Assembly (NCBI GenBank): GCA_963663225.1
Contig: OY760142.1
Span: 1,972,333-2,036,332 of the forward strand
Direction: 5' to 3'
Origin: Nitrospirota bacterium
GTDB taxonomy: Bacteria > Nitrospirota > UBA9217
Length of the DNA: 64,000 nt
The translations under genes were made by a program, and so were the position numbers. Position 1 is the stretch's first letter. Each line of letters begins with the position of its first letter. Under the pieces are notes generated by a model, which worked only from the letters and a program-made list of their open reading frames with translations, was not told the origin of the DNA and searched no databases. Below are positions 27,537 to 35,431 of this stretch, piece after piece.

Positions 27537-27719
27537 ATGTTTATACCGCTAGAGCAGTGCCAAATCTACAAGGATGGTCAATGGATTACGGTGGCAGCTT
27601 CGGACTGCATGTGTTTCACCTGCGATGCTCCGTGTTCTCCTTGTGAAAAAGACTGTCCGGGGCCGACGAAGGAATGTAAAAAGAAACAAGACGCAGTAAA
27701 AAACGGCAGGCTTCCTTGA
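27537..27719 (+). CDS. Small Cys-rich hypothetical protein (8 Cys in 60 aa)
   Basis: ATG with SD-like GGGGGTG upstream; CMCFTCDAPCSPCEKDCPGPTKEC; TTG-TATAAT -10-like element ~80 nt upstream; no recognised family. Confidence 0.35.
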   Translation: MFIPLEQCQIYKDGQWITVAASDCMCFTCDAPCSPCEKDCPGPTKECKKKQDAVKNGRLP

Positions 27720-27878
27720 TTTTATTTACAAACGGAGCTAAAGAAACCGAAGAAAATGCAGCTAAGATAACTGCGGAGCTTTTCGCCGACGTTCTTTCAA
27801 CTTTGGGTACGAATCTCACCTGGACACCGGCATGTGTGCATAGATTTCGACCACCGGTGTCTTATTATGGAGGTGACG

Positions 27879-28349
27879 ATGATATCGCCGATCGGACCAC
27901 CTGCTAGCCTGTTTTCCTACTTTCAGACCGATGCTGTTGCCAGGAACAAGTCAGCTTCCCCCGCAGATACTATGGCTGTTCAGGCCTCCGCGGATTCAGA
28001 AAAAACCGCAGCCATAGGCCCGAACGAGTGCAAAACCTGAGCGTCGAGAAAGTACAAGGATCGGTCAAATGATCCTTCCGTTTCGTTTCAGACGCCGACG
28101 TCGGTAGCCCCTGAACTTGCCGCGAGTGCTGTGCGCGCCCATGAGCAGGAGCATGTTCAGCACAATGCATTAAAAGCAGAGAGCGCCGGTATGAAAGCGA
28201 CCTCAATCGTACAGATACATACCGCCGTATGTCCTGAGTGCGGCAGAATTTATGTGTCTGGGGGGACCACTATCACGACCTTTTCACCTGACCAATCCTT
28301 CACTCCAACGGACTCTTCCAACGGAATGCTCGTCAATATCCGCGTATGA
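27879..28349 (+). CDS. Candidate selenoprotein (hypothetical), in-frame TGA at 28038-28040 in C-K-T-U context
   Basis: ATG 27879 with strong SD GGAGGTGA; frame stays open 53 codons to TGA and 102 codons beyond; ...IGPNECKT[U]ASRKY...; hairpin AAGGATC-GGUCAAAU-GATCCTT 15 nt after TGA; C-terminal CPECG motif. Confidence 0.3.
28056..28077 (+). other. SECIS-like stem-loop (7-bp stem, loop GGUCAAAU)
   Basis: Perfect complementarity AAGGATC/GATCCTT; apical loop carries GGUC as in the E. coli fdhF SECIS; starts 15 nt after TGA. Confidence 0.3.
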
Positions 28350-28689
28350 GCGCGGCAGCGTCCTGTGTCACGAGATGCATCCATCGGGTTCCAAGTATCT
28401 CACACGTGTTTACAAATTGAATTGCCTGGAAAAATAACCTGCCTGTTGCAGGCAAATCTTCTTCTCAACAATATGCACGGACGTCTTCATGAGTTGAGCT
28501 TCTTGAGCCCTGCAGGGCGGGCGGAGGGTTTTGCCGACTTGCGGACTTTTATGTCTGATACGAAAATATTATGTAGAATCTGTTTTAAAATACTGATAGA
28601 CTTGTTGCCGAAGATGCATAATAGCCGCTATGCTTTTTACACGGAACCTATTTGAATTCTCATTATTTACTATGACGGGGAGGCAAGGC

Positions 28690-29052
28690 ATGTTTGGGAT
28701 GGGAGCCATGGAGTCTATCGCGATTATTCTGCTGGTTGTGCTGATAGGGGCCGCAATCTGGTTGACTTTTTTCCTTAAAAAAAAATATCCGAACAATATC
28801 TGGATTGGGTTTATTCTCAGTTTTTTGCTGCCTCCCATCGGTCAGTTGTACATCGCGGGGGCGCTGCCATGGATCACCGCTTTATTTGTCTGCTACGTTT
28901 TTTTTCAGGGCTTTCGCATAACGATAGCCACGGCATGGCTGTTGACCGCGGCGGTTTCGGGCATAATCATGTGTTATAGACTGCTCCAGCAAAAGAAATC
29001 ACCGGAGAATTCACCGGTGAAATTGCCAGCGAAAAAAAGCAAAAAAAAATAG
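28690..29052 (+). CDS. Small hypothetical membrane protein (3-4 TM, Lys-rich C-terminus)
   Basis: Start at ATG preceded by GGGGAGG; hydrophobic segments; 4 nt upstream of HD-domain gene. Confidence 0.6.
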   Translation: MFGMGAMESIAIILLVVLIGAAIWLTFFLKKKYPNNIWIGFILSFLLPPIGQLYIAGALPWITALFVCYVFFQGFRITIATAWLLTAAVSGIIMCYRLLQQKKSPENSPVKLPAKKSKKK

Positions 29053-33162: not shown

Positions 33163-33986
33163 TCAAGGAAGGATCTTGTTGATGTCTTTTTCCGCATAGT
33201 TTTCCCGGCGCCACCGGTACGGTAAATCTATGATGGCGCCCGGATTACGTATCTCGTGCAACGCGCGGAAAGCTTCAGCAAGAATGACGCGATGTTGTGC
33301 AGGCTTGAACGGCTCACCGAGCGGATGTCCGAAAGGCCATCTGACAAAAACGGTTCGCGGAGGCTTGACTGCTTCGGAATATTTACGGACAATCGAGATG
33401 CCTATCGTCGGGATGCCGGCTTTTTCTATCACCCGCTGTATCAGTCCGACGGACTGATTACAAATGCCTCAGGCGGGAGTCAACAGAACAACATCCACGC
33501 TGTCCGCCTTTAGTTTTTGAGCTATTTCAGGTGCGCTCGTCCTTGTCAGAGTCTGGATGTGGCGGCCGGTGATATGACCCATAAAACCATAGTGAGTGTC
33601 TGCTATTCGGCCAATGAGCCCTTCCTGCTCGAATTCTTTCAATCGTTCAAGTGGAAACACGATGTTGATGTCTTTGTCGGCATCAGCGTGGTCATAATAA
33701 TCGTGCGTGATCTTGAGACTGGAAAGGGGTCTCCTTGCATCGAGGGCTCTGTAGGAAGGGTCTCCATCATGGTCTGACATATTGAAAGGTTCCTGGTCAA
33801 TATGCTGTACACCGGACGTCGTTACAATAGCTATTTTTGAACTTTTAAGGCTTTTTATAACGGGAGTCCAGGGGATATCAAGCGAAGTCAATGGATCGTA
33901 AGCGTCTATGAATTTTTTCGCCAGCGATGGGAACCGAGTAATTACTTTTGCGATGAGTTGATTTTTAAGTCTCGCAAAGTCCATGT
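33163..33986 (-). CDS. Selenoprotein B family (GrdB/PrdB-like reductase subunit), UGA-Sec at 33469-33471
   Basis: ORFs 33469..34161 and 33163..33432 are in the same frame separated only by TGA + 12 codons; joined: ...VDVVLLTPA[U]GICNQSVGLIQRMIEKAGIPTIGISIV...RTVFVRWPFGHPLGEP matching GrdB/PrdB region (TUGxC, IERAGIP, IPHPLGNP); start placed at MDFARLKNQ. Confidence 0.8.
33440..33458 (-). other. Bacterial SECIS-like hairpin (8-bp perfect stem, GUC loop) 10 nt 3' of the UGA
   Basis: Minus-strand ATCAGTCC-GUC-GGACTGAT; position and G/U-containing apical loop fit bSECIS. Confidence 0.65.
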
Positions 33987-34087
33987 TTGGACCTCCAATG
34001 GAAAAGGTTTTTAAATCCAAAAATTCCACCAAAATGCCGGATGCTGTGCTGGGCCAATGTTTGCTCTCTGCGCCTGCTCCTGCGAAG

Positions 34088-35095
34088 TTATCTTCGCTCC
34101 GACCGTCCGCCTCCGTGCGGACTGCTGCCCTCTCTTCCTCCGCCCGGGAATCCACCTTCACGGCCTCCGCCGGGAGCCGGAGTAAATGTTTTCCCTTCTC
34201 TGCTCATACCGCCAGACGGACCGCCCTGCCTGCTACTTTCAGGAACAGGGGTGAACGTTTTATCTCTGCCTGTCAATTCACGTTCCCGGAAACCTCGAAA
34301 AACTGCATTGCTGCCTCCACGAGCACCGGTGATGATAAAGCGCTTTGACTTCTGCGGTACGCCTATTCCGCCATACGTTCGTCCATTGAACCTTTTAATC
34401 GGATCTATTCTGAAGACCCTGTTTGCGCGACGATCAACGAAGTGGTTTGAAATGATTTCCACCCGCCCGTGTACATGGACGACTCTGTGAAAATCAACCA
34501 GAATAAAATATCCGGGAAACCAGAAATCCCACCACCAGAAAGGATAGGGAATCCACGTATAAAGATAGAAATAATCCGGCGGCGGAGCGTAGTAGGTTAC
34601 TATTGGCGGGCCCTGTTCAGCATAGTAGTTATTCACCACGGTAGTTCCTTCAGAATTGTCATAGTGCGGGCTTGTCTGAGCAGTTTGCCCAGGAGGCGTT
34701 CCTTGTTTTACTGCAAGGCTTAGTCCTGTTGTAACTTTCTGGAATCCCCGCAATGCCTCGTCTTTTCCGATATCCAGCCGATTTGCATCTGCAGCGTCTA
34801 CAACAGATTGCCTCAACTCTCCGATGATGTCGGGTGTAACCGGGTAATCTGCAATCCATCCGTTTCTGGGGGCAATGCCTACGTCTGCCAGCCTGTTTTC
34901 GGCTTCGGTTTCATTTGCCGCTGTTGGGAGATTAAGCGCTTCAACCAGCTTGAGTGCAAGATCTCCTTCACGCACCAGGGGTTGGGCTATCGGAGGTTTT
35001 ATCTCAGCAGGCTGCATCGGCTGGGCATATGTTCCTGCGGGTATTAAACACAAAACAGCAAAAGTTATGAGTAAACGTTCAAACGACTTTTTCAT
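34088..35095 (-). CDS. Secreted hypothetical protein with aromatic cluster and Gly/Arg-rich repeat tail
   Basis: Start MKKSFERLLITFAVLCLIPAGTYAQP (signal peptide, SD GGAGGTG); PYPFWWWDFWFPGYF; C-terminal repeats DKTFTPVPESSRQGG / GKTFTPAPGGGREGG. Confidence 0.65.
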   Translation of the reverse strand: MKKSFERLLITFAVLCLIPAGTYAQPMQPAEIKPPIAQPLVREGDLALKLVEALNLPTAANETEAENRLADVGIAPRNGWIADYPVTPDIIGELRQSVVDAADANRLDIGKDEALRGFQKVTTGLSLAVKQGTPPGQTAQTSPHYDNSEGTTVVNNYYAEQGPPIVTYYAPPPDYFYLYTWIPYPFWWWDFWFPGYFILVDFHRVVHVHGRVEIISNHFVDRRANRVFRIDPIKRFNGRTYGGIGVPQKSKRFIITGARGGSNAVFRGFRERELTGRDKTFTPVPESSRQGGPSGGMSREGKTFTPAPGGGREGGFPGGGREGSSPHGGGRSERR

Positions 35096-35431
35096 GTGCC
35101 ACCTCGGAGTCGAATTATTTGAATCTTTGGTATCATAAGGCATTTTTCTGTGTTTATGAGCCTGTTATTTTTATAGCACTTGCCGCAAATCCTGTCAATT
35201 TGCTCACGATAAAATAATAATTATGAAATTAATATATCGAAAAAGCGGCATGACAAGGAAGTAACGAAATAGATAAGCAGACATCAACGGTTTGTTCTGA
35301 ATGCAGATGGCGATATCGTTAAGTGGATTAATATTTGTCTACTTCTTTAAAGCAGAATATTCCAGGATGATGTATATTATTATAAGCATAAAAATGTTTA
35401 AAAATATTATTTATGCATGCCGAAAAAGGGC

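Follow-up and report, generated by a model that had tools for sequence, protein, structure and literature searches.

A predicted selenoprotein gene from an undescribed protein family in a Nitrospirota genome

Introduction

When a single in-frame TGA interrupts a reading frame, is the codon a stop, or does it encode selenocysteine (Sec)? Bacterial selenoproteins are systematically mis-annotated because UGA is taken as a stop. The question is raised here by a frame at 27879-28349 on the forward strand of a 64,000-nucleotide stretch of contig OY760142.1, from the assembly GCA_963663225.1 of a Nitrospirota bacterium; this whole stretch is hereafter called the window, and positions are counted from its first letter. 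An earlier reading of the same DNA, made from its letters without database searches (the sequence-only reading), had proposed that the frame encodes a small selenoprotein with a C-x-x-U motif, followed by a hairpin that could direct Sec insertion. Our comparative analysis supports that interpretation, and we consider it very probable that 27879-28349 is a genuine selenoprotein gene. The kind of locus, a bacterial selenoprotein with cysteine (Cys) homologs and a selenocysteine insertion sequence (SECIS) in its coding region, is well known, while the protein family itself is undescribed.

Results

The reading frame and its homologs

The frame opens at an ATG preceded by a strong Shine-Dalgarno sequence, meets a single TGA after 53 sense codons and continues for 102 more to its stop. 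Each of these coordinates, taken from the sequence-only reading, could be verified on the sequence (Table 1), as could the C-K-T-U motif, with the residues ...I-G-P-N-E-C-K-T directly before the TGA. This ATG is supported as the start by the N-terminus M-I-x-P-I-G, which is common to the homologs and to the other TGA-containing forms described below. TGA is the ordinary stop for 12 of the 39 long open reading frames (ORFs) in the window; the genetic code is therefore standard, and any recoding would be site-specific. The first in-frame restart codon after the TGA is a GTG, 31 codons on, past the most conserved block of the protein.

Using the read-through product as query, with U written as C, the homolog search returned 859 proteins, many of them full-length with 55-62% identity over 99-100% of the length. 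All 859 are labelled 'hypothetical' and none carries a Pfam domain; the 120 listed homologs have no precomputed Pfam domain. An exhaustive profile search yielded 1,157 clusters at 50% identity, and for 687 of these the E-value was <= 1e-30; a scan of species-representative genomes found at least 553 family loci. The family is common in gut Clostridia and ranges over Clostridia (Oscillospiraceae, Lachnospiraceae), Thermotogae, Spirochaetes, Ignavibacteria, Desulfobacterota and Nitrospirota. Scans of Pfam and NCBIfam with the read-through product, with both of its halves and with 28 + 10 homologs returned no family at threshold.

The sequence-only reading had suggested looking for homologs with Cys at the U column. 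Full-length homologs do span the TGA with Cys there, inside the conserved block E-C-x-T-C-x-x-R-K-Y-x-D-x-S-x-D-x-x-V-S-F, which is followed by ...A-x-x-V-x-x-H-E-x-x-H-V... and ...C-P-E-C-G-x-x-Y-V-S-G-G-T-T. In the homolog alignments C51 is invariant, and T53 and C54 are nearly so. H88, E89 and H92 are invariant in 116 homologs, with HExxH present in 144 of 144 representatives, and C118, P119 and C121 are invariant as well (CP[ED]C in 116/116). The C-P-E-C-G motif in the C-terminal half had been pointed out before; the invariant HExxH motif had been missed.

TGA recurs at one column, with selection on both sides

Among 159 fetched loci, the codon at the U column is TGC in 82, TGT in 61 and TGA in 16; TAA and TAG never occur. 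Besides the window, the 15 other TGA loci come from metagenome-assembled genomes (MAGs) of Desulfobacterota and Nitrospirota and from metagenomes. Six are in named MAGs (Desulfocapsa, Smithella, a Deltaproteobacterium and three Nitrospirota), and six metagenome contigs were also added. The protein patterns used in the genome and metagenome scans for further TGA forms were placed away from the hairpin.

Four database records of ~90 residues (P0046, P0049, P0071 and P0079; 89-93 aa) look like half genes, beginning exactly at V/M-S-F. For the three of these with DNA (P0046, P0049 and P0071), in-frame translation upstream leads to a TGA at the same C-x-T-U column; the frame stays open back to a similar M-I-x-P-I-G start, and the hairpin is almost identical. 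The sequence-only reading had held that halves existing as separate genes would speak against it. These three, however, are gene-caller truncations of TGA-containing orthologs: the public gene calls (L001:486-767, L002:2592-2873 and L003:3001-3273) start at an internal GTG or ATG and miss the true N-terminal ~68 residues, Sec included.

The frame is uninterrupted in the nine TGA forms inspected, with 42-57 codons between a conserved M-[IT]-x-P start and the TGA and 100-106 codons beyond it. One TGA form, L005, has no in-frame restart codon anywhere after the TGA. The ratio of nonsynonymous to synonymous divergence (pN/pS) after the TGA is 0.36 over codons +1 to +13, 0.32 over +14 to +30 and 0.27 over the rest, values indicative of purifying selection on the segment, including the codons ahead of any restart site. 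Upstream of the UGA, the N-terminus and the C-x-T motif are also conserved, so conservation at the protein level is found on both sides. A neighbor-joining tree of the 88-residue core, which is a weak tree, places the TGA forms within one subfamily, interspersed with Cys forms. Since the candidate SECIS elements of the TGA forms are homologous (see below), the simplest reading would be that the ancestor had Sec and that Cys replaced it several times.

A hairpin specific to the TGA forms

The perfect hairpin AAGGATC/GATCCTT that the sequence-only reading placed 15 nt after the TGA is there on the sequence. Bacterial SECIS (bSECIS) elements are described by a loop of 3-9 nt, a stem of 4-16 bp, a G in the first two loop positions, a distance of 16-37 nt from the UGA and a minimum free energy (MFE) no higher than -7.5 kcal/mol (PMC13188914 Fig. 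2A). The window hairpin lies within all of these limits: its loop has 6-8 nt and begins with GG, its stem has 7-8 bp, its spacing is 22-23 nt and its MFE is -9.3 kcal/mol. The core hairpin has z = -3.2, and one of 200 shuffles folds equally well. Rfam gave no relevant match, either at the gathering threshold over the whole window or at a permissive threshold over the gene.

Comparing the MFE of Sec and Cys forms proved non-discriminating owing to differences in GC content, and it was replaced by counts of pairs at homologous positions. At the seven stem positions, 12 of the 16 TGA forms make 7/7 pairs, two make 6/7 and one makes 5/7. L030, the last, encodes different residues, and its shifted variant still folds into a stem-loop at the same distance, with a loop that starts G-U. 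In the register of the seven stem positions, 88 Cys forms were classified, and they peak at 3-4 of 7 pairs, with a mean of ~3/7; even L020, a Cys form with the identical D-R-S-S-D-P-S peptide, makes only 3/7. The loop begins with GGUC in 15/16 TGA forms vs. 9/88 Cys forms. Over 15 distinct TGA forms, 95.8% of the cells in the upper helix are paired, vs. 20-60% when the partner is slid.

The hairpin is thus conserved only in the TGA forms, and the pairing is kept by compensatory changes, which bears out a check that the sequence-only reading had proposed. In two stem pairs both bases have changed (A-U/C-G/G-U and A-U/G-C/U-A); in another two, one base varies and the pairing is kept. Because this covariation couples the synonymous third base of a Pro codon with the amino-acid-changing second base of a K/Q/V/R codon, it would not be expected from protein constraint alone. 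Codon choice is also fixed in the TGA forms: the Arg within the hairpin is CGG in 15/16 and the first Asp is GAU in 14/16, while an Arg five codons upstream varies freely. Synonymous divergence is lowered over the hairpin (pS 0.53 vs. 0.75-0.86). The element may extend further, as an RNAalifold consensus contains a lower helix with 85% of its cells paired. One lower-helix pair joins two synonymous third positions (Arg AGA/AGG/CGG and Phe UUU/UUC), with changes on both sides. The register of the lower helix is uncertain, single-sequence MFE favoring a slightly different one.

A second selenoprotein gene in the window

The sequence-only reading had named a GrdB-like selenoprotein gene 5 kb away as a sign that this genome uses Sec, and that gene is real. 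Its read-through product scores 75.8 bits against TIGR01918, above the curated cutoff of 65.45, with a match that spans the U, and the hairpin CAGTCC-GTC-GGACTG follows the TGA. TIGR01918 is the selenoprotein B family of glycine/betaine/sarcosine/D-proline reductase. The best match of the product is PrdB at 182.7 bits, under the 300-bit PrdB cutoff, so we regard it as a PrdB/GrdB-like protein that stands alone, not as a canonical PrdB; further grd or prd genes were not seen next to it. A UGA at the canonical U-x-x-C position in this selenoprotein-B-family gene indirectly supports Sec use by the genome. A 351-aa ORF at 34088-35143 (-), in another frame, shares part of its length with the region upstream of this gene; it matches nothing in Pfam or NCBIfam and may be spurious.

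Predicted architecture and a possible metal site

We ran AlphaFold2 on P0001, the closest of the Cys forms, using an alignment that contained 116 homologs. The predicted core, residues 51-140, has a pLDDT above 90, and the N-terminus is disordered. A short helix (52-55) lies at the C-x-x-C knuckle and a longer one (78-102, pLDDT above 90) carries the HExxH. Two strands, 105-117 and 124-137, form a long β-hairpin with C-P-E-C at its tip. CPxCG at the tip of a β-hairpin is a classic metal knuckle.

Exactly four Cys are found in 98/116 proteins, and both knuckles occur together in 113/116 and 140/144. As these four are the only Cys and the two knuckles co-occur, they can be read as one Cys4 site, which would be Cys3Sec in the window protein. 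In our reading, the four Cys/Sec residues most likely form a single tetrahedral metal site that staples the N-terminal segment to the helix-hairpin core. The sequence-only reading had called the CxxU motif 'redox-type'. The motif itself stands; the redox label was overstated, since a metal site is indicated at least as strongly by the co-conservation of the four Cys, and redox chemistry is only one of two live readings. We give about even odds to a small metalloprotein in which one metal, bound by CxxU and CPxC, would anchor the N-terminal segment at the hairpin tip beside the HExxH helix, with Sec as a selenolate ligand or a redox-sensitive element.

Two known architectures share parts of this arrangement. 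The HExxH of zincin-type proteins lies on a helix, as do the invariant H88, E89 and H92 here (helix 78-102); the zincin fold, with its mixed β-sheet, active-site helix and third-ligand element, was not recognizable against solved structures, among which no relatives of the protein were found. Two CxxC knuckles, the second a CPxCG at a β-hairpin turn, are characteristic of zinc-ribbon/rubredoxin-type proteins and are both present here, and the Pfam and NCBIfam zinc-ribbon models gave sub-threshold matches only. A catalytic, metallopeptidase-like role of the HExxH is suggested by the motif, and metal binding by the four Cys/Sec residues by their conservation pattern; both are predictions from sequence.

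Variable N-termini and gene neighborhoods

The family N-terminus reads M-I-x-P-[IV]-[SG], or M-x-G-x-x-G-L…Y in Clostridia, in the alignments and in P0201, P0263, P0256 and P0154. It is followed by a disordered low-complexity linker whose length varies from 40 to >260 residues, and the long Clostridial forms have a recurring …R-M-R-[IM]-Q-Y motif. By analogy with the reported export of CJM1_0395 by the type III secretion system of the flagellum, this N-terminus may be a secretion or targeting signal. Long members were searched for domain fusions, and only low-complexity N-terminal extensions were found.

No conserved neighborhood emerged: among 136 flanking ORFs and 150 Pfam families, none occurred in more than five loci, leaving no operon partner. 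Downstream and convergent, a response-regulator + PilZ protein of the type found in cyclic di-GMP or motility signaling is encoded at two of the closest TGA-form loci (L001:786-1502 (-) and L002:2892-3608 (-)). On the contig of P0079, Roadblock/LC7 and Arf (MglB/MglA-like) genes lie upstream. Neither kind of neighbor is present in the window or at most other loci.

In the window, 160 nt upstream of the predicted selenoprotein gene and oriented like it, lies a 60-aa ORF with eight Cys (…CMCFTCDAPCSPCEKDCPGPTKECKK…) at 27537-27719 (+), perhaps a gene and perhaps not. Neither Pfam nor NCBIfam matches it, and nothing similar adjoins the other TGA-form loci. Small Cys-rich ORFs also flank the TGA-form gene of L003 (L003:2386-2700 (+) and L003:3286-3456 (+)), one of them with C-W-x-x-x-K-C / C-W-K-V; their sequences are unrelated to that of the 60-aa ORF, and a search for a conserved small Cys-rich partner found none. 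Downstream of the gene, an inverted repeat between it and the next ORF is flagged as terminator-like on both strands (Table 1). That next ORF, 28630-29052, is a predicted membrane protein without a family.

Table 1. Features of the predicted selenoprotein locus and of the second selenoprotein gene, in window coordinates.
Feature	Position	Strand	Details
Predicted selenoprotein coding sequence	27879-28349	+	53 codons, UGA-Sec, 102 codons, stop TGA 28347-28349; about 155 residues
Shine-Dalgarno GGAGG	27869-27873	+	5 nt upstream of the start codon; read from sequence
Start codon ATG	27879-27881	+	Sequence
In-frame UGA, predicted Sec54 codon	28038-28040	+	Cys at this column in 143 homologous loci
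C51-K-T-U54 motif, first metal/redox knuckle	28029-28040	+	C-x-T-C in homologs
Possible extended SECIS with lower helix 28048-28051 / 28086-28089	28048-28089	+	Tentative; RNAalifold consensus
Candidate SECIS upper stem-loop, 7 bp AAGGAUC/GAUCCUU	28056-28077	+	Arms 28056-28062 / 28071-28077; begins 15 nt after the TGA
Apical loop GGUCAAAU (or GUCAAA with an optional closing G63-U70 pair)	From 22-23 nt after the UGA	+	Stem 7-8 bp
H88-E-Q-E-H92, invariant HExxH on long helix	28140-28154	+	Alignment and AlphaFold2 model of a Cys form
C118-P-E-C121-G, second knuckle at the tip of the long β-hairpin	28230-28244	+	Alignment and AlphaFold2 secondary structure
GC-rich terminator-like hairpin, possible end of the transcription unit	28436-28458	Undefined	Consensus scan only; ~90 nt past the stop
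PrdB/GrdB-like selenoprotein gene	33163-34161; TGA 33469-33471	-	...VLLTPA-U-GIC..., U-x-x-C motif; 5 kb away

Discussion

The locus combines a Sec/Cys correspondence at one column with translation-type selection on both sides of the UGA and an RNA element that is specific to the TGA forms and fits the SECIS model, and the window contains a second selenoprotein gene. From this comparative signature we infer that Sec is inserted at the UGA. In the proposed mechanism, translation would start at the ATG, and at the UGA the hairpin would act as a bacterial SECIS that recruits SelB with GTP and Sec-tRNA(Sec). Sec would then be inserted instead of termination, and translation would run on to the stop at the end of the frame. 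Sec54 would take the place of the second Cys of the N-terminal C-x-T-C knuckle, and C-x-T-U together with C-P-E-C-G, which supply the protein's only four Cys/Sec residues, could make up one metal site (Cys3Sec).

Several observations weigh against the selenoprotein reading. The call draws on sequence comparison. The TGA forms appear to be related, falling in one subfamily, so they do not count as 16 independent events. No selA, selB, selC or selD, and no tRNA, lies within the 64-kb window. The hairpin overlaps the conserved peptide K-D-R-S-x-D-P-S, so its conservation is partly at the protein level, and clear double changes are confined to two or three pairs. The fold of the wider 55-nt context (MFE -13.5 kcal/mol) has a weak z-score (z = -1.3). 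By the same measure, however, the authentic E. coli fdhF SECIS gives z = -0.9, so single-sequence thermodynamics cannot decide, and the comparison of homologs must.

Could the TGA simply be a stop, leaving a split or decaying gene, or two small ORFs of which the downstream part is untranslated or made from an internal start? Gene callers do record P0046, P0049, P0071 and P0079 as short proteins, TGA ends other ORFs of the window as a normal stop, and read-through at this locus is predicted from its sequence signature. But a decaying gene does not explain why, at 16 loci in several phyla, the codon is always TGA, always at the Cys column and never TAA or TAG. Ahead of any usable restart, the first 13-30 codons past the TGA still have a pN/pS of 0.32-0.36; in L005 no restart codon exists at all. 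Termination would also cut C51 off from its three co-conserved residues, and would leave the TGA-form-specific hairpin after the codon unaccounted for. We therefore regard a genuine stop as barely credible. It is likewise very improbable that the hairpin is something other than a SECIS, either a by-product of palindromic K-D...D-P codons (AAG GAU C ... GAU CCU U) or an intrinsic terminator or attenuator. A terminator scan does flag 28056-28077 with its T-rich tail, the hairpin overlaps conserved peptide, and some Cys forms reach 5-6 of 7 pairs through chance codon choice. However, the 'T-run' codes for the invariant V-S-F, and a terminator within a conserved ORF would truncate that ORF. A by-product of the peptide would be expected in L020, which has the same residues and few of the pairs, and not in L030, which has other residues and keeps a stem-loop at the same distance; nor would it explain the fixed synonymous Arg and Asp codons next to a freely varying Arg, or pairs maintained through two-sided changes.

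A different kind of alternative accepts the selenoprotein and concerns only what Sec54 does: it could be a redox-active C-x-x-U center, working as a selenenylsulfide or selenol-thiol couple and not as a metal ligand, with CPxC as either a further redox pair or a structural element of its own. Most known bacterial CxxU/UxxC selenoproteins are thiol-oxidoreductase-like (PMC13188914). Sec is always at the second position of the first pair, and the short AlphaFold2 helix over the x-x-C of C51-x-x-C54 resembles that of CxxC redox motifs. Yet the protein has neither a thioredoxin-like fold nor a match to a redox family. Its four Cys are strictly co-conserved and are its only ones, and the hairpin-tip CPxCG is of the metal-knuckle type, the only weak family matches being to zinc-ribbon models. 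We consider a redox center possible but doubtful. The two readings overlap, because a zinc-thiolate/selenolate site can itself serve as a redox switch.

With a selenoprotein as the preferred reading, we put forward, as a speculation that we think rather unlikely to hold in full, that the window protein is the founding Sec member of an undescribed family: a minimal zincin-like HExxH helix-hairpin module clamped by Cys4 knuckles, in which one metal ligand is Sec in anaerobic Desulfobacterota and Nitrospirota. If so, Sec would be a selenolate ligand or would control a miniature metalloenzyme as a redox-sensitive 'switch'. Such a role would lie beyond the selenoprotein paradigm of thioredoxin-fold oxidoreductases, and the protein would be the first selenoprotein tied to a putative metallopeptidase lineage. 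As a metal ligand, Sec would also offer a compact model for the choice of selenium over sulfur in metal sites.

The locus adds a family that neither Pfam, NCBIfam nor the 2026 catalogue of 119 families contains. Every TGA-form ortholog with an examined database record is entered there as a truncated hypothetical protein of ~90 aa, and the clean Sec/Cys pair and well-behaved candidate SECIS could become an annotation rule directly. The locus also draws attention to a widespread unnamed family whose invariant HExxH and Cys4 signature suggests a small metalloprotein.

Comparison with known families and elements

The claim of the sequence-only reading that the protein belongs to no known selenoprotein family was upheld. 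Every family in the May 2026 catalogue of 119 prokaryotic selenoprotein families and subfamilies carries a domain identifier, and the window protein matches none of them; no entry has HExxH, metalloprotease or SprA-related features (PMC13188914), and no Pfam or NCBIfam model matches. The deep-Sep and BSepDB texts mention no such family, although a supplementary list might still hold it. Literature searches on Sec with zinc ribbons, Sec with HExxH, and SprA-related proteins with selenoproteins found nothing relevant.

Among selenoprotein models, only NF049953, the 'zinc ribbon-containing (seleno)protein DG' (deep-Sep 'hypothetical protein DG'), gave any signal, at 12.5 bits vs. a cutoff of 130 and over the C-terminal half only. 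It resembles the window protein in being a small uncharacterized Desulfobacterota protein with a zinc-ribbon-type motif and both Sec and Cys forms. We rejected membership on the score and on the Sec motif, which is G-U-x-G in DG (PMC13188914 Table 1) and C-x-x-U here. The FmdB-family putative regulatory protein (TIGR02605, UxxU) and the dual CXXC motif small protein (NF041197) are also predicted selenoproteins (PMC13188914 Table 1). Both are small and replace a Cys of a CxxC pair with Sec in a two-knuckle, zinc-ribbon-like arrangement. Unlike the window protein, they have no HExxH helix, and their Sec positions and motifs differ (UxxU, RxU/GxU). TIGR02605 gave sub-threshold matches to 3/28 members, and neither model matches significantly.

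The closest described family is PF12118, the 'SprA-related family' (at NCBI, the putative metalloprotease CJM1_0395 family), which has been predicted to be zincin-like from its HExxH motif (PMC3650047) and one member of which is reported to be a candidate substrate of the C. jejuni flagellar secretion system (PMC5223770). Proteins of both families are small (about 150-270 aa), with a disordered N-terminus starting M-x-I-[SG], an invariant V-R-A-H-E-Q-x-H helix, then a β-hairpin and then Y-x-x-G-G. Aligning our family alignment to PF12118 sequences with hhalign gave a probability of 59.8% and E = 8.8e-5 over 48 columns that cover the HExxH, the hairpin and the GG. However, 46/48 PF12118 proteins have no Cys, with G-P-D-G-K where the window family has C-P-E-C-G-R; they lack its N-terminal C-x-T-C...S-V-S-F block, and no Sec form has been reported for them. 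Membership in PF12118, the family considered first, was rejected because its hidden Markov model (HMM) matched none of 28 members at E <= 0.1 and none of 10 more at E <= 0.01. The gathering score of the HMM is 27.3 bits, and it recognizes its own signature at 131.8 bits. PF12118 is plausibly a distant sister family of the window protein's family, and not that family itself.

For the RNA element, the best-known counterpart is the SECIS of E. coli fdhF, likewise a stem-loop in the coding region just after a Sec-UGA. We checked it on the E. coli sequence, which matched at 100% under the fdhF annotation in 5,419/5,426 genomes and whose MFE fold has a GGUC tetraloop. The loop similarity pointed out by the sequence-only reading therefore holds on the real fdhF sequence, as both apical loops start with GGUC. 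The distance from UGA to loop is 18 nt in fdhF and 22 nt in the window, and outside the loop the two share no sequence similarity. A bulged U is a known feature of the fdhF SECIS; the window's upper stem has no such bulge and is a perfect helix of 7-8 bp.

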